Shown: in pieces, positions 54,859 through 60,755 of the stretch
How the letters are laid out: each line of letters begins with the position of its first letter
How positions within the stretch are numbered: position 1 is the first letter of the stretch
NCBI GenBank assembly: GCA_041690135.1
Contig: JAWLHY010000015.1
Span: forward strand, 143,820-207,819
Direction of reading: 5' to 3'
DNA from: Armatimonadota bacterium
GTDB taxonomy: Bacteria > Armatimonadota > SYMT01
DNA length: 64,000 bases
The notes under the pieces: generated by a model
The model's input: the letters and a program-made list of their open reading frames with translations, nothing else
What the model was told of the DNA's origin: nothing
Database searches by the model: none
Program-made: the position numbers and the translations under genes

Positions 54859-56898
54859 ATGGAGTATCCGCGGAGCCGGGTGGAGGAGGTCAGCGACGAA
54901 CTGCACGGGGTAGCCGTGGCGGACCCGTATCGCTGGCTGGAGGAGGGGGAGAGCGCCGAGGTCCGGGAGTGGACGGAGGCGCAGAACACGCTGACGGAAG
55001 CGGTGCTCGGGCAGTTTCCGGGGCGGGAGCGTATTCGAGAGCGCCTGACGGAACTTCTTTCGGTGGGGACGCTCACGAGCCCGGCGGTGCGGAAGGGTCG
55101 CTACTTCTATCAGCGCCGGGAGGGGGAGCAGAACCAGCCGGTCCTGTACTGGCGGCAGGGAAGCGGGGGTGAAGACCGGGTGCTGGTCGATCCCGCTGTT
55201 TACGAGGCGGACGGCACCGCGGCCCTCGACTGGTGGTTCCCTTCCCCGGACGGACGTCTCCTGGCCTACGGAATCTCGCACCAGGGGGATGAGAAATCCA
55301 CGCTCGGGATCCGGGTCGTGGAGACGGGCGAGGACCGGGAAGACCGGATCCCGCACACGCGCTTCACCTCGCTGGCCTGGCTTCCGGATGCGAGCGGGTT
55401 CTATTACACCCGCTACCCCGAGCCGGGGACCGTACCCCGGGGCGAGGAGAACTACTGGAAGAAGGTCTACTACCACGCCCTCGGCACCGATTGGCGCGAG
55501 GACCCGGTGGTCTTCGGGGAAGGCCGGGCGCGCGAGGATATGTACGGCGTCGACCTCTCGCCGGACGGACGCTGGCTGTGCGTCTCGGTGTTCCAGGGCT
55601 GGGCCAAGAGCGAGGTGTACCTGCTGGACCGGGCGCGCACCGGGGCGGAGTTCGTGCCCGTCGTCGAAGGGGTCGAGGCGCTCTTCGTGCCGTGCGCGCA
55701 GAACCGGTTCCTCTACCTTCTGACGAACGACGGGGCGCCGAACTACCGTATCTTCCGCATCGACCCGGAGCGCCCGGCACGGGAGTCGTGGGAGGAGATC
55801 GTTCCGGAAGGGCCGGAGGTGCTCGAAGGCCTGGGCGTGGTGGGCGGCCACCTGGTGTGCAACACCCTGCGCCGGGCCTGTTCCGGACTGCATCTTTTCA
55901 CCCTGGACGGCGCGCCGGTCCGGGAAGTGGAGCTGCCGGGCCCCGGAACGCTGTTCGGCTGGAACGGCGAGTGGGACGGCGACGAGCTCTATTACGGGTA
56001 CGTCTCCTTCACCCAGCCGCCCACGGTGTTCCGGCACTCGGTCGGCTCCGGCGCCACCGAGTTGTGGCAGCAGGTAGAGGCGCCGATCGACACCGACCGC
56101 TTTCTCACCCGGCAGGTGACCTATCCCTCTCGCGACGGGACGGAGATCTCCATGTTCCTCGTCCACCGTAAGGACCTGGAACTCGATGGCGAGCGCCCCA
56201 CGCTGCTGTACGGATACGGCGGGTTCAACGTGTCGCTGGGGCCTTCGTTCGTCCGCGGCGCCTATCTGCTGCTGGAGCGGGGAGGGGTCTACGCCATGGC
56301 CAACCTCCGCGGCGGTGGGGAGTACGGCGAAGCGTGGCACCGGGACGGAATGCTGGAGCGCAAGCAGAACGTATTCGACGACTGCATCGCCGCGGCGGAG
56401 TACCTGATCCGGGAGGGCTACACACGACCGGAGAAGCTGGCGCTCCAGGGGGGCTCGAACGGCGGCCTGCTGGTGGGAGCCGTCATTACCCAGCGGCCGG
56501 ACCTCTTCCGCGCCGGGGTCTGCCAGGTGCCGCTGCTGGATATGGTCCGCTACCACCAGTTCAGCATCGCCCGCCTCTGGATTCCCGAGTACGGCAGCGC
56601 GGATGACCCCGAGCAGTTCCAGATACTTCACGCCTACAGTCCCTACCATCGGATCAGGGAGGGGACCGCCTATCCGGCGATGCTGATCACCGCGGCCGAG
56701 TCCGATACTCGAGTCGACCCGCTCCACGCGCGCAAGTTCGGCGCCCGCCTGCAGGCGGCGAACGGGAGCCAGCACCCCATCCTGCTGCGGATCGAGACGC
56801 GCGCCGGACACGGGGCCGGGAAACCGCTGACCAAGGTGATCGAGGAGCAGACGAACGTGTGGAGCTTCCTCTTCCAGCAACTGGGGATCGAGCCGTGA
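54859..56898 (+). CDS. Prolyl oligopeptidase (S9A)
   Basis: DPYRWLE, YGYGGF, RGGGEYG, GGSNGG, D.RV.P.H, AGHG. Confidence 0.96.
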   Translation: MEYPRSRVEEVSDELHGVAVADPYRWLEEGESAEVREWTEAQNTLTEAVLGQFPGRERIRERLTELLSVGTLTSPAVRKGRYFYQRREGEQNQPVLYWRQGSGGEDRVLVDPAVYEADGTAALDWWFPSPDGRLLAYGISHQGDEKSTLGIRVVETGEDREDRIPHTRFTSLAWLPDASGFYYTRYPEPGTVPRGEENYWKKVYYHALGTDWREDPVVFGEGRAREDMYGVDLSPDGRWLCVSVFQGWAKSEVYLLDRARTGAEFVPVVEGVEALFVPCAQNRFLYLLTNDGAPNYRIFRIDPERPARESWEEIVPEGPEVLEGLGVVGGHLVCNTLRRACSGLHLFTLDGAPVREVELPGPGTLFGWNGEWDGDELYYGYVSFTQPPTVFRHSVGSGATELWQQVEAPIDTDRFLTRQVTYPSRDGTEISMFLVHRKDLELDGERPTLLYGYGGFNVSLGPSFVRGAYLLLERGGVYAMANLRGGGEYGEAWHRDGMLERKQNVFDDCIAAAEYLIREGYTRPEKLALQGGSNGGLLVGAVITQRPDLFRAGVCQVPLLDMVRYHQFSIARLWIPEYGSADDPEQFQILHAYSPYHRIREGTAYPAMLITAAESDTRVDPLHARKFGARLQAANGSQHPILLRIETRAGHGAGKPLTKVIEEQTNVWSFLFQQLGIEP

Positions 56899-57890
56899 AC
56901 TCGCTGCCGGCGCCCGCCCGCTACTACCCGTTTCACCGGGGGAAGTACGAGGTCTCCCCACGCCTCCAGTCCCTGGGAACCGCGTTCGGAAACGGGCCGG
57001 CGGACGGGCGCCTCTTGCAGCTCGACACCGAGTTTCCCACTTACCGGGAGAACAAGCTCGCCTGTCGCCGCGAGGATCGGGCGAAGTACTGCCGGACACA
57101 CGAGTACCAGCCCCAGGTCGCCGCACAGGTCGCCGGGACTCTCCTGGCGGATCTGGTCCGCGATTATCCGACCTGCTTCCAGGCCCGCGCGCAGGGAGCA
57201 GAGGGCCTGGAGCTCGACTGCCGCCTGACGGGTGAGACCCTGCGGTTCGGTCCGGGTATGACCCTGGTGGACGCCGCCGGACCAGAGGCGGTTTCCCCGC
57301 CGTACGCGGATGCCCTGGATGCCCTCGCCTGCCAGATCCAGGAAGACCTCGCCGTGGTCAGCACGGAGGCGGGCCGGGACTGGCTCTCCGCCGTCCACGT
57401 TTGCAGCCCGAGCGGCTGGGCGCCCGCGGAGAAGATCGGGCAGGACTTCGGGGCGCTGCACGACCCGGTGCCGGGGATGGAATCCCTAAGGCCCCTCGCC
57501 GGCAAGCTGGTGGACCTGATCGTCCACCGGGGCCCCCACGTCCGCTTCGTGTGGGGCATCTCGCCGGACAGACGACTGAACCGGCACCCCAAGCCGCCCG
57601 TGGGAATCTCCCCGGCGACGTGGCGCGGCCGTTACGATTGGTCGCAGCCGTCGCCGTTCGTGGTCCGGGTGGAGCGCCAGTGCCTCTACCCGCTACCGCA
57701 GGTGGGGGCGAGCCTGTTCTGTATCCGCCTCTCGTTCATCGACGCCGCGGAGCTGCGGACCGACGAAGAACGCCGCGCGCAGCTCCGGGCGGCGCTCCTC
57801 TCCATGTCACCCGCGAGCCGGACCTACAAGGGAGTCACGGAATGCTTCGAACCCCTCATCGCCTGGCTCGCTCGCCCACCGGAATACTGA
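56895..57890 (+). CDS. DUF3445 / heme-dependent oxidative N-demethylase alpha-like protein
   Basis: QEDL, C.PSGW...EKIG..F..LH.PVP, RFVW.I, RVERQ.L..LP, YKG; GTGA overlap with upstream gene. Confidence 0.85.
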   Translation: MNSLPAPARYYPFHRGKYEVSPRLQSLGTAFGNGPADGRLLQLDTEFPTYRENKLACRREDRAKYCRTHEYQPQVAAQVAGTLLADLVRDYPTCFQARAQGAEGLELDCRLTGETLRFGPGMTLVDAAGPEAVSPPYADALDALACQIQEDLAVVSTEAGRDWLSAVHVCSPSGWAPAEKIGQDFGALHDPVPGMESLRPLAGKLVDLIVHRGPHVRFVWGISPDRRLNRHPKPPVGISPATWRGRYDWSQPSPFVVRVERQCLYPLPQVGASLFCIRLSFIDAAELRTDEERRAQLRAALLSMSPASRTYKGVTECFEPLIAWLARPPEY

Positions 57891-58647
57891 CCTGGCGCTC
57901 CCACATCGCCAGCGCCAGTTCCCGCGGGCGAGCGCGGACGCCGGAGAGCGCGAAGAACTCGTATACGTTTTCCAGGTCCCGCAGCAGCAATTCGAAAGCT
58001 GTGGAGTTGTAGCGCGGATCCACGGCCTGCGGGAAATCGATGATCCGGACGTCCGCGGTCCTCTCTTCCGGCCGGACCACCAGAATGTTGTAGGGCGAGA
58101 GGTCTCCGTGGATGACGTTCTCCGACAGGCAGAGCTCCACGTTCCGCACGACCTGCTCGAACAGCCGCTGCGCCACGGGGGTCGATAACTCCACGGTGTG
58201 AAGAGGTGGGGCAGCAATCCCCTCATCGCCGAGGAACTCGATCAGGATGGCACTCTCGCCGCACGCCACGGGCCGCGGCACATCCGCCCCCGCCGCATGG
58301 AGCGTGCTCAGGGTGGCGAACTCATGCCCGATCCACATGCTGAACTGGGTTTCCCGTCCCTTGCGCGTCTTCTTCTCCATGGCGCGGCGGATCCGCCCAT
58401 CCAGCACCACACGTCCCTCCTGGTAAACGGCATCGTTCTGGAAGCCGCGGCCTTCGCGCGAACGGTAGACCTTTCCGGCGAGATAGCCGCCGCCCACCGA
58501 CGGTCCCCCCTCACAGCAATAGACTGTCGCCTCCTTGCCGCTCTTGACCACCCGCACGACGCGGGAGATCAATTCATCTTCCAGGAAGTCGACCAGCGCG
58601 TCCGGTACGCCGCCGCCCCTCCGTTTCCGATTCTTTTCCGGGAGCAA
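57856..58647 (-). CDS. RIO1-family serine/threonine kinase
   Basis: KSGKEATVY, KVYR, W...EF..L, IHGDLSPYNIL, IIDFPQAVD. Confidence 0.95.
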   Translation of the reverse strand: MLPEKNRKRRGGGVPDALVDFLEDELISRVVRVVKSGKEATVYCCEGGPSVGGGYLAGKVYRSREGRGFQNDAVYQEGRVVLDGRIRRAMEKKTRKGRETQFSMWIGHEFATLSTLHAAGADVPRPVACGESAILIEFLGDEGIAAPPLHTVELSTPVAQRLFEQVVRNVELCLSENVIHGDLSPYNILVVRPEERTADVRIIDFPQAVDPRYNSTAFELLLRDLENVYEFFALSGVRARPRELALAMWERQVSIPVGERARR

Positions 58648-58699
58648 TGCTCTTGATCCTCATCTTTTCAAGGTCGAGTGAATTGAACGGATGTGCCTG

Positions 58700-58740
58700 A
58701 TAAAGAATAACCCGACCGGGACATGGCCCCGGCCGGGTCA
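58700..58740 (-). terminator. Terminator-like hairpin upstream of RIO1 gene
   Basis: Minus strand tgacccggccggg-gccatgt-cccggtcgggtta then ttcttta. Confidence 0.7.
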
Positions 58741-58762
58741 TGGAGCATCTCTTCGGTAGGGA

Positions 58763-58804
58763 CTACCGCCGCCCTGCTCCGCGGGCGGATGTAAGGTTGA
58801 CCAT
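58763..58804 (-). CDS. Putative 13-aa leader peptide MVNLTSARGAGRR
   Basis: AAGGAGGT Shine-Dalgarno 7 nt upstream of ATG; stop 22 nt before hairpin. Confidence 0.6.
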   Translation of the reverse strand: MVNLTSARGAGRR

Positions 58805-58872
58805 AACATCCACCTCCTTCCGCGGACCGGTTCACCGGTCCGACTCCTGTGTCGCGCGGGGCGGGCAGGCTG

Positions 58873-59400
58873 CTAAACACAAGCCGGCTCCCGGTCCCAG
58901 TCTTCGTAGCGCCGGCGGATCTGGCGCATGTAGTAGGCCACGTTGGCGGAGGTGCAGCCGAGGACGCTGCCCGTCTCTCGCCAGGTGAGGCCGTCCAGCA
59001 GGCAGTCGACGATCTCCCGCTGGGTGGAGGTGAGCTGCGCCTTGAACTCGCTGACGGTAGCCCCGTCGACGGCATCCGTCGCGGGCTCGGCGGCGGGATC
59101 TCGCTCCAACTCGCCGTCCAGCGACTGGCAGCGGCGGACACGCGCGCGGCGAATCGCATCCAGGAGGCGCCAGCGGGCACGCTTGATCAGGTGCTGCTCG
59201 GGGGAGCCGATCCGCAGGTCGAGGCCCGGAATCGCTTCCAGCACGCCCAACCAGGCTTCCTGGAGCAGGTCGTCGCTATCCTCGCCGCAGCGCCGGGCGT
59301 AGTAGGCCGCCATCCGCTCCAGCCGCGGGCGCAGCGCATCCACGACTTCACCGGTCGCTATCGGGTCGCCAAAAGTGGCACGTTCTATGGTCTGGTTCAT
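58873..59400 (-). CDS. Sigma-70-family (ECF-like) RNA polymerase sigma factor
   Basis: DDLLQEAWL (region 2), LLDAIRR, LT..QREIV.....GLT.RE....LG.T (region 4 HTH). Confidence 0.85.
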   Translation of the reverse strand: MNQTIERATFGDPIATGEVVDALRPRLERMAAYYARRCGEDSDDLLQEAWLGVLEAIPGLDLRIGSPEQHLIKRARWRLLDAIRRARVRRCQSLDGELERDPAAEPATDAVDGATVSEFKAQLTSTQREIVDCLLDGLTWRETGSVLGCTSANVAYYMRQIRRRYEDWDREPACV

Positions 59401-59427
59401 GGCTTCGGGTCAAGTTCGGTCAGTAAG

Positions 59428-59466
59428 AAACGCAAAAAGGCCGCAGGCAGCATGCTGCCCGCGGCC
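59428..59466 (-). terminator. Attenuator terminator upstream of sigma gene
   Basis: Minus strand ggccgcgggcagc-at-gctgcctgcggcc followed by tttttgcgttt. Confidence 0.85.
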
Positions 59467-59536
59467 CGAAACTGATCGGGGTCGCCCGGTGAACCAGTCT
59501 TTGGCTGTCGGCCCCATTGGGGCGGACTAAAGCCGG

Positions 59537-59614
59537 TTAGCGATGAGGATTCACCGGGCAGCGGCGGGCAAGGCGCACGCGCTTATCTCGAAGGGTGGCT
59601 ACGATCATCAACAT
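59537..59614 (-). CDS. Putative 25-aa leader peptide MLMIVATLRDKRVRLARRCPVNPHR
   Basis: AAGGAG RBS 6 nt upstream; overlaps alternative pairing segments; precedes terminator. Confidence 0.65.
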   Translation of the reverse strand: MLMIVATLRDKRVRLARRCPVNPHR

Positions 59615-59942
59615 CTAACGCTCCTTCAGCCCGGTGGGGCTCAAAACTGCGGTCATTCTACAGGAAGGCTGCCCGCTCTGTCACTAGACCTTCCAAAATA
59701 GGTAGTGGGGTGGACGACGAGTCCCCTCACGCTCCCGAAGGCCTCTATCGCGTGAGGCGGCGCCGGCGCTAAAGGAGTTTTCAGAATTTTTTTCGGGTGA
59801 TCAGTGGGGGCTCTGAGTTAGCGGGTTGGAAGCCCCCCTCGGGGGCCAGGGGTTGAACGTTGAAGTCCCTTGGCGGCCAAGGGCTTTCCGAGGTGCGGGA
59901 GGGTACAATCTCCGAGGCGGTGTGGAAAGGAGAGAGGGGACT

Positions 59943-60755
59943 ATGCCGTTGCCATTGGACCTGGTGCTGGTGCGCCATGGGGAGTCGGAGGGGAACGTGG
60001 CCTCGCGGCGGACGCTGGCGGGGGACAATAGCTGTTTCACGCCGGAGTTCCTGGCCCGGCATAGCTCGCAGTGGCGGCTGACGGACCGGGGCGTCCGGCA
60101 GGCGGAGGCGGCGGGAGCCTGGATCCGGGAGAACCTGTGGACCGATTTCGACCGGTACTATGTCTCCGAGTACCTGCGGGCCAAGGAGACGGCCGCGCAC
60201 CTGGGGCTGCCGGAGGCGGTGTGGTTCTCGGACTTCTACCTGCGGGAGCGGGACCGCGGCGACTGGGACGTGATCACCTACGAGGAGCGAATCAACCGGT
60301 ACCCGGAATCGGTCCGCGAACAAGAGGCGGAGCCGTTCTTCTGGACACCGCCGAACGGGGAATCGCTGGCCCAGCTCTGTCTGCGGATCGACCGGGTGCT
60401 CCACACCCTGCACCGGGAGTGCGGCCAGATGCGGGTGATCGTGGTTTGCCACGGAGAGGTGATGAAAGCGTTCCGGGTCCGGCTGGAGCGGATGACCCAG
60501 AAGGACTATCACGCGCTGCACGCCTCCCGAGATCCCCAGGACCGCTACCGCAATGGGCAGGTGGTGCACTACACCCGGCGCAATCCCCGCGATCCCGGAG
60601 CAGAACCCGCGCCCTACCTGAACTGGGTTCGAACCGTGTGCCCCTGGGACCCGGACCCCTCTGCCGACGCATGGCGCGAGATCGGGCGGCCCCGGTTTAC
60701 GAATGAGGAACTGCTGGAGGAGGTGCGGCGGGTCCCGCGGCTGGTCGAAGGATGA
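59943..60755 (+). CDS. Histidine phosphatase / phosphoglycerate mutase family protein
   Basis: LVRHGESEGN, LT..G..QA, S.Y.RA.ETA, LRER..G, GES, VCHG. Confidence 0.92.
   Translation: MPLPLDLVLVRHGESEGNVASRRTLAGDNSCFTPEFLARHSSQWRLTDRGVRQAEAAGAWIRENLWTDFDRYYVSEYLRAKETAAHLGLPEAVWFSDFYLRERDRGDWDVITYEERINRYPESVREQEAEPFFWTPPNGESLAQLCLRIDRVLHTLHRECGQMRVIVVCHGEVMKAFRVRLERMTQKDYHALHASRDPQDRYRNGQVVHYTRRNPRDPGAEPAPYLNWVRTVCPWDPDPSADAWREIGRPRFTNEELLEEVRRVPRLVEG

Follow-up and report, generated by a model that had tools for sequence, protein, structure and literature searches.

Sigma factors are normally controlled by anti-sigma proteins, and the locus described here raises the question of how a sigma factor gene that lacks such a neighbour might be governed. 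The locus lies in a window of 64,000 nucleotides (nt) from an Armatimonadota bacterium (contig JAWLHY010000015.1, positions 143,820 to 207,819), in which a gene for a sigma-70 family protein is preceded by a short upstream open reading frame (uORF) and a terminator-like hairpin, and followed by a gene for a RIO1-like kinase. An earlier sequence-only reading of this DNA had proposed that two serial attenuators, one ahead of each gene, release the sigma factor and the kinase when translation is stressed. All of the elements that it had listed are present in the minus-strand sequence at the coordinates given below, which refer to that strand unless stated otherwise. Of its interpretation, the attenuator-like unit before the sigma gene and the link between sigma factor and RIO kinase have stood, while the second unit turned out to be weak and the promoter that it had named is not conserved. 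Our preferred reading, built on comparative sequence analysis, is that the leader at approximately 59740-59401 is a leader-peptide transcription attenuator controlling an extracytoplasmic function (ECF)-like sigma factor that is conserved across Armatimonadota; we put its probability at roughly 0.62.

A conserved uORF and terminator precede the sigma gene

The elements on which this reading turns are the following.

59621-59636, minus strand: segment 1, made up of CACCGGGC (59636-59629) and the Shine-Dalgarno (SD) sequence GAAGGAG (59627-59621) of the leader open reading frame (ORF)
59537-59614, minus strand: uORF1, 25 codons and a stop, with the SD GAAGGAG 6 nt upstream
59550-59571, minus strand: segment 2 within uORF1, TTGCCCGC (59571-59564) and GCCCGGTGAA (59559-59550), predicted alternative partner of segment 1 or segment 3
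59484-59493, minus strand: segment 3a, TTCACCGGGC, predicted partner of segment 2 or of the sigma translation start region
59428-59467, minus strand: intrinsic-terminator-like hairpin (59467-59438) and T-tract (59437-59428), 37 nt before the sigma ATG
58873-59400, minus strand: ECF-like sigma-70 family factor, 175 aa, matching Sigma70_r2, r4_2 and TIGR02937

The window taken by itself says little about the leader. A terminator scan of the region returned two candidates where 1.8 were expected, which is not above chance, and both the leader before sigma and that before RIO fold better than shuffled sequences (z = -3.5 and -4.3). It is because of conservation, and not because of window statistics, that we judge the first leader to be more than a chance arrangement. 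We pooled 82 unique upstream regions from Armatimonadota loci carrying the sigma factor, the relatives taken from the genome collection nearly all bearing the Armatimonadota label; among the metagenome-assembled loci with the unit are some labelled Capsulimonas, Chthonomonas and Fimbriimonadia. A uORF, defined as an ORF of 12-60 codons whose start codon follows a strong SD by 3-12 nt, was found in 68/82 loci, the typical SD being CCGGAAAGGAGGC. A perfect-stem terminator finder proved too strict (28/82 loci) and was replaced by a fold-based criterion that accepts a hairpin of -10 kcal/mol or lower, directly followed by at least six T in 9 nt, if it lies no more than 160 nt ahead of the sigma start. 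By this measure a terminator-like hairpin with a T-tract is present in 42/82 loci, against 1/82 coding and 2/82 antisense controls. The uORF-terminator unit that had been noticed ahead of the window's sigma gene is thus a conserved attenuator-like element.

In the window, the terminator consists of a 13-bp GC-rich hairpin followed by TTTTTGCGTTT. When 27 hairpins were aligned, the shorter members of a set of 36 loci whose hairpins reach -14 kcal/mol or lower, all ten predicted pairs showed compensatory change, with at least one sequence altered on both sides. Only 23-47 nt separate the end of the hairpin from the sigma start in 21 of the 24 loci with a listed hairpin, and a sigma SD of the GGAGGAGA type follows the hairpin in many loci. 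So short a gap leaves no space for a separate promoter, and sigma must therefore come from read-through.

The uORF itself looks translated, as judged from its SD, reading frame, stop position and codon bias. The window's uORF1 would encode MLMIVATLRDKRVRLARRCPVNPHR, with six arginines. Across the family the peptides are weakly conserved except for a C-terminal stretch resembling (H/Y)RSPR(S/F)G, whose codons (CGC TCG CCT CGT TCC GGC) are complementary to the SD region, so that the apparent peptide motif is largely an RNA constraint. The CCTCG motif is nevertheless held in register: of the 24 loci that have it, 16 keep it in frame as CCT CGx, where eight would be expected, and in nine of these 16 the stop lies exactly 27 nt from its first base, in ORFs of 20-34 codons. 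The 5' part of the uORF has an in-frame codon usage of its own, with AGR codons at 3.6% (0.9% in sigma ORFs, 1.7% in the other two frames), Ile codons at 7.9% (4.1% and 4.1%) and Thr codons at 10.8% (4.0% and 5.8%).

Alternative pairings within the leader

The predicted complementarities of the leader, in which segment 2 can pair with segment 1 or segment 3 and segment 3 with segment 4 (1:2, 2:3 and 3:4), are the layout of a trp- or whiB7-type attenuator, with the unusual trait that segment 1 is the SD of the leader ORF itself. Pairings were tested at each locus against 100 dinucleotide-preserving shuffles, and in the window against 200; the terminator 5' arm was tested together with its loop and the 12 nt upstream. 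Pairing of the SD region with the last 45 nt of the uORF (1:2) beats at least 95 shuffles in 36/68 loci, and pairing of the uORF 3' end with the terminator 5' arm (2:3) does so in 21/37, compared with 2/37 when the uORF 5' end was offered to the arm as a control. The 2:3 duplexes comprise 17-25 bp, of which 10-16 pairs lie within the arm or loop, and their sequences vary between lineages. When partners were swapped, the cognate partner beat at least 90% of dissimilar non-cognate ones in 16/37 loci for 2:3 and in 19/37 for 1:2. Across the family, then, a predicted antiterminator overlaps the leader ORF and excludes the terminator.

The position of the stop codon relative to this duplex is similarly regular. 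In 15 of 16 examples, 0-13 nt separate the end of the uORF from the antiterminator strand's 3' edge, the exception being locus L009, where the strand runs 5 nt beyond the uORF end. The sequences flanking the terminator also pair with one another better than shuffles in 16/37 loci, and in the predicted folds of many loci this flank pairing hides the sigma SD.

In the window, the minimum free energy fold pairs segment 1 with the 3' end of uORF1, and an alternative 13-bp helix joins segment 2 to 59478-59500, a stretch that includes segment 3a; only 3/200 shuffles match this helix. The part of segment 2 that enters either pairing is GCCCGGTGAA, its predicted partners being CACCGGGC at the SD and TTCACCGGGC in segment 3a.

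Proposed operation of the switch

Arranged in order, these elements suggest the following mechanism. Transcription would start at a specialised promoter, TTTAGC-N17-CGATA, and a ribosome would load on the strong SD and translate an ORF of approximately 25 codons, the last ten or so of which, together with the stop, would constitute segment 2, which could then pair with segment 1 around the SD or with segment 3, the terminator's 5' arm and its flank. Quick translation to the stop would mask segment 2, allowing the terminator to form and keeping sigma off; a leader that was not translated at all would form 1:2 and terminate too. Were a ribosome to slow down among the rare codons in the 5' part of the ORF, segment 2 would stay free to form 2:3, resulting in read-through, and this state would, in many loci, also open the sigma ribosome-binding site. 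The sigma factor would then probably act on its own promoter type and boost its own expression, while inducing a small regulon in which ribosome-rescue genes, RNA-repair genes and the RIO kinase often appear; in the host genome the kinase is placed directly downstream of sigma. The conserved anatomy of the leader, its complementarities and the distribution of the motif are what the sequences show; we infer that translation is the signal, that the switch works in this direction and that the sigma factor reads TTTAGC-N17-CGATA.

A sigma factor without an anti-sigma neighbour

The protein consists of regions 2 and 4 only, as in ECF (group 4) factors. It matches Sigma70_r2 at E = 2.6e-12 and passes TIGR02937, the ECF superfamily model, with 49 bits against a cutoff of 42.9; its r4_2 match, at 23 bits, is slightly below the cutoff of 25.7. 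The nearest solved sigma factors are distant (sigma-H 3mzy, E = 6.5e-9; WhiG, 1.4e-7). Matches at E <= 1e-25 occur in 122/401 genomes of the phylum, usually as one ortholog with 45-70% identity. A co-encoded anti-sigma factor is usual, though not universal, for ECF sigma factors. Among 81 sigma loci we found no conserved neighbour, the biggest neighbour cluster comprising nine loci, and hence no conserved anti-sigma gene is adjacent.

Two cysteines, at positions 91 (RRC) and 149 (GC[TS]SAN), are invariant in 12/12 aligned sigma orthologs. On this pattern, they might serve redox or metal sensing in a sigma factor that lacks an anti-sigma.

A paralogous sigma factor of approximately 38% identity is found in every genome of the family (loci L014-L019), the host's own copy lying at G000:C1:238306-238800. 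It was considered as a second user of the leader and rejected: its upstream block, which is conserved, reads GGAAACATGGATTTAACACG ... GAAGCA ... CGTAAT ... CTACACTTACC, a different motif without uORF or terminator.

The promoter motif and its candidate regulon

Two promoter-like elements lie upstream of uORF1.

59744-59773, minus strand: conserved promoter-like motif TTTAGC-N18-GATAGA (= TTTAGC-N17-CGATA), candidate promoter for the transcript of leader and sigma, and perhaps a target of this sigma factor itself
59655-59684, minus strand: sigma-70-like promoter GTGACA-18-TAGAAT of the sequence-only reading, 10/12 consensus matches

The second of these had been offered as the promoter of the leader. 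One such site was found in 2.8 kb where shuffles predict 0.5, which alone is not significant, and it is not conserved in the alignment of family relatives. A different motif, approximately 90 nt further upstream, is conserved. GTGACA-18-TAGAAT is possibly a secondary promoter. The conserved motif, TTTAGC-N17-CGATA, occurs within 260 nt upstream of the uORF in 44/68 loci (median 81 nt) and within 700 nt of the sigma start in 52/82. It was rejected as a housekeeping promoter: tRNA genes of the host are preceded by near-consensus TTGACA-N17-TATAAT (for example at C1:823786, C1:1152434 and C2:1278321), which indicates that the host housekeeping promoter is canonical and that TTTAGC-N17-CGATA is a different promoter type.

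In the 9.1-Mb host genome (65% GC) the strict N17-CGATA form has only four sites, which precede the sigma leader, hflX (the HflX domain architecture was confirmed) and two proteins without a Pfam family. The latter two sites are G000:C2:829340 (L125) and G000:C3:887862 (L126), and their proteins have 230 and approximately 164 aa. We scanned 71 genomes of at least 95% completeness for the motif, with the reversed pattern as control; sigma status came from the phylum-wide sigma search, with G044 added later, and match counts were summed by hand. The 26 sigma-bearing genomes gave 114 motif matches against 40 for the control, compared with 44 against 66 in the 44 genomes without sigma and 0 against 0 in the single paralog-only genome.

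Whether the sigma factor encoded behind the leader is the one that reads this motif bears directly on the proposed regulon. If another sigma factor did so, the co-regulation of leader, RIO and hflX would not be this factor's regulon. The link between motif and sigma is a putative one, and in some loci the -10 part is housekeeping-like (GATAAT, TATAAT). Nevertheless, the enrichment is confined to sigma-bearing genomes, the motif precedes the sigma factor's own leader in the 44 loci noted above, the paralogous sigma has a different conserved upstream motif, and a second motif copy directly follows the sigma gene in four genomes (G008:C314:10999, G141:C162:18654, G064:C73:14816 and G028:C193:73428). 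In G008 this copy precedes rsgA; in the other three genomes the downstream ORF calls are short or doubtful. We consider another sigma factor to be a rather unlikely reader of the motif, if a genuine contender.

Genes downstream of the motif were assigned for 83 sites (80 from 13 genomes and the three host sites other than that of sigma) as the longest ORF starting within 350 nt, which was obtained for 76 of them. The recurrent assignments are hflX in four genomes of four families; rsgA in three genomes of three families, once directly behind the sigma gene; a mutS2-like gene in two genomes; a RimJ/L-like GNAT in three genomes of one family; a two-domain GNAT at three sites; and an RpoD-like sigma in two cases. 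RtcB, a Thg1-like enzyme, prolyl-tRNA synthetase, a TROVE-domain protein and RIO are single cases. Fifty-seven downstream ORFs are singletons, among which some calls are probably spurious, and several of the scanned proteins lack a Pfam family. HflX, RsgA, MutS2 and RtcB act on ribosomes or in RNA repair, and the whiB7 regulon includes hflX and acetyltransferases. The placement of hflX, rsgA and mutS2 behind the motif fits a theme of translation stress.

One genome, G048, carries an identical promoter-pattern string six times (C6, C12, C32 and C72, each at 30-57; C31; and C151). Four copies lie 30 nt from contig starts, and the string is probably a repeat or mobile element and not a set of promoters.

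The RIO kinase and the second leader

Downstream of the sigma gene lie three further elements.

58763-58819, minus strand: uORF2, 13 codons (58804-58763), with the SD AAGGAGGT (58819-58812) 7 nt upstream
58697-58741, minus strand: 16-bp hairpin (58741-58707) and U-rich tail TCTTTATCAG, sigma terminator or partial terminator before RIO
57856-58647, minus strand: RIO1-like kinase, 263 aa, TTG start, Pfam RIO1 E = 3e-31

The protein scores 108.9 bits against PF01163 (cutoff 22), which places it in the RIO1 family; against NF041645, the PA4780-family equivalog model, it scores 169.1 bits (cutoff 350) and is therefore a relative, not an equivalog. Its nearest solved structures are archaeal Rio1 (12ez, E = 6.8e-17; 1zp9, 7.3e-17), with eukaryotic Rio1 also among them. 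The translation contains SGKEA, HGDLSPYN and IDFPQ, which we take to be its catalytic motifs, and its TTG start is shared with the ortholog in G313. In most Armatimonadota RIO proteins (L003-L007, L161-L185) an acidic extension containing a TYKPSRHE..WL..SL.PF-like motif is found at the N-terminus; the window's sigma-linked protein is without this extension.

RIO was found in 45/401 genomes of the phylum and is absent from most sigma-bearing genomes. The sigma gene is directly upstream in 4/32 RIO loci (the host, G006, G313 and G296), representing three families. Eight of the other 28 have TT[TG]AGC-N17-CGATA within 700 nt upstream, mostly just ahead of the ORF start, and 14 of the 28 have a relaxed form; by a rough estimate, the chance of such a motif is of the order of 1e-4 per 700-nt stretch. 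The four operons and the eight motif-bearing loci together indicate that the association of sigma and RIO is real and takes two forms, operon or shared promoter. The synteny seen in the window is thus linked to a wider pattern; as a general rule it was rejected, being the exception among sigma loci, where RIO lies downstream in 3/30 from the genome search and 2/80 from the genome collection.

The sequence-only reading had placed a second attenuator before RIO, so that ribosome stalling would release both genes in series. Both units do exist in the window, an SD-led uORF recurs in the sigma-RIO spacer of three of the four operons (the host, G313 and G296), and pairing between the SD and the coding sequence of uORF2 is equalled by 9/200 shuffles. 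What the second unit lacks is the antiterminator: no complementarity was seen between uORF2 and the 5' arm of hairpin 2 (127/200 shuffles pair equally well), and we found no support for this role. A hairpin with a T-tract occurs only in the host window among the four operons. The G313 spacer has CCGGAAAGGAGG, an 11-codon ORF and a strong hairpin without T-tract; that of G296 has an SD-led ORF overlapping the RIO start and no separate hairpin; and that of G006 has no obvious equivalent uORF. Four operons are too few to judge conservation, and hairpin 2 may simply be the sigma terminator. Two serial attenuators released by stalling are accordingly a distinctly unlikely arrangement; the second leader may instead be the terminator of sigma, leaking some read-through into RIO, or a device that acts in translation.

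Transcript contigs

RNA-library contigs from four runs of one study, 90-99% identical to the window, cover 58789-59727. A 911-nt contig from a relative (95-99% identical) spans uORF1, the terminator and the sigma ORF. Contigs reach 59699 and 59727, both upstream of GTGACA-18-TAGAAT, the latter end falling approximately 10 nt downstream of the transcription start that the conserved promoter would predict. No contig covers RIO or lies upstream of 59756, which is not evidence of absence. The contigs cannot show strand, ends or level, and are only compatible with the attenuator model.

Weighing the attenuator reading

Could the leader be a switch that works through RNA alone, for instance as a thermometer or by binding a ligand or protein, and that keeps both SDs sequestered while the short ORF is incidental? 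Both SDs are paired in most predicted folds, the (H/Y)RSPR(S/F)G stretch is accounted for by the pairing of its codons with the SD region, and the better-than-shuffled terminator flanks in 16/37 loci would suit such a device. A bystander ORF would not be expected to have its start codon 3-12 nt past a strong SD in 68/82 loci, to keep the frame of its motif and the distance to its stop although its length varies, or to differ in codon composition from the other two frames. A scan of 4227 Rfam families gave none at gathering score, the sole match at E <= 1 being Ysr276 with 22 bits against 100. Such a switch is, in our judgement, quite improbable. It is very improbable that the product of the uORF is a functional small protein, such as a mini anti-sigma, whose gene has a terminator to itself while sigma is transcribed separately: SD, ORF and terminator do resemble a small gene and no anti-sigma neighbour was found, but the peptides are weakly conserved outside the RNA-constrained stretch, the terminator-sigma gap of approximately 23-47 nt carries no promoter motif, and the ORF 3' end is complementary to the terminator arm.

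The leader-peptide attenuator, which we prefer, has to contend with several observations that count against it. By the criteria used, 14/82 loci have no uORF and 40/82 no strict terminator. The 2:3 test was not significant in 16/37 loci. In the window, direct pairing of uORF1 with the terminator arm is equalled by 48/200 shuffles, and the clear alternative helix lies 11 nt upstream of the terminator stem; the case for antitermination in the host genome comes from the pattern across the family and from how the nascent leader is predicted to fold. The distance from uORF stop to terminator ranges from 28 to 281 nt in the 24 loci listing both, a spread too wide for simple steric coupling to apply in every locus. 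Relatedness among the loci makes the counts overstate their independence, and the RNA contigs may contain DNA carry-over. As for the regulon, the controls indicate that chance accounts for about a third of motif matches; the motif also precedes genes outside translation (an ABC transporter, an OLD-like ATPase, a TPR protein, peptidases); and hflX has the strict motif in only 2/30 loci examined and a relaxed form in 6/30, for which reason it was rejected as a universal target.

Genomic surroundings

The leader is flanked by a divergent gene at 59826-60755 (plus strand) for a histidine-phosphatase superfamily protein. At the other end, a gene at 56859-57890 (plus strand) for an HODM_asu-like protein is convergent with RIO and overlaps its 3' end by approximately 35 nt. 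Neither is conserved beside sigma. Elsewhere in the host genome, aragorn identified a dense array of about ten tRNA genes in approximately 1.1 kb (G000:C4:52411-53525). Sequencing-run shares were all small (<= 0.16), and no habitat was inferred from them.

Relation to known systems and implications

The closest parallel is whiB7 of Actinobacteria. In one account (PMC10274678), this stress regulator is described as lying behind a uORF and a Rho-independent terminator; efficient translation of the uORF leads to termination, whereas impaired translation allows an antiterminator to form and transcription to read through, and the regulator feeds back positively on its own promoter. The same logic of regulator, uORF and terminator, also that of wblC, is what we propose for the sigma leader. 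The differences are that the output here is a member of the sigma-70 family and not a WhiB-like Fe-S factor, that the phylum is another one and there is no sequence relationship, and that segment 1 is the SD of the uORF itself. In full-text literature searches, judged by titles and the openings of abstracts and not extending to supplementary files or subscription journals, we found no description of a sigma-leader circuit of this kind. The concept has its precedent in whiB7 (PMC10274678).

With the trp, leu and his attenuators the leader shares the four-segment layout (1:2, 2:3 and 3:4) and a leader stop at the edge of segment 2. It differs in having no run of one regulatory codon, its uORF 5' part being enriched instead in rare AGR, Ile and Thr codons, and in controlling a sigma factor and not a biosynthetic operon. 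By analogy, the sigma leader would work like whiB7 and the trp-type attenuators while belonging to neither family. A likeness to ermC and cat is seen in the many loci where a helix hides the sigma SD and might be undone by a rearrangement driven from the leader ORF; unlike those systems, the sigma leader has a canonical hairpin and T-tract, on account of which the main decision appears to be transcriptional, and no known arrest motif was recognised in it. What the factor shares with autoregulated ECF sigma factors is the restriction to regions 2 and 4 and a conserved promoter-like motif of two blocks ahead of its own gene; here no anti-sigma partner was found and control apparently resides in the mRNA leader. 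The window's kinase, for its part, resembles archaeal and eukaryotic RIO1 and the bacterial PA4780 family in its RIO domain, with archaeal Rio1 as nearest structures, and departs from the PA4780 family in falling below the NF041645 cutoff and in being tied to the sigma-leader unit and the promoter motif.

It is tempting to extend these observations to a phylum-wide system of translation surveillance, in which a speed-sensing attenuator gates an anti-sigma-less, autoactivating sigma factor with a ribosome quality-control regulon (HflX, RsgA, MutS2, RtcB, GNAT and RIO). We offer this extension tentatively, as a possibility with the balance of the evidence leaning somewhat against it. If it held, bacterial RIO kinases would gain a first regulatory context, one that points to small-subunit or ribosome repair, and logic of the whiB7 kind would have evolved independently to control a sigma factor.

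Should the attenuator reading be true, a ribosome-sensing mRNA leader that gates a sigma factor would be a distinct way of coupling translation status to global transcription, conserved across a phylum that has been little studied. It would also stand as an independent counterpart of whiB7, a response of clinical importance. The shared promoter defines a concrete, testable regulon and, by grouping RIO with HflX, RsgA and MutS2, would make the function of the kinase approachable.

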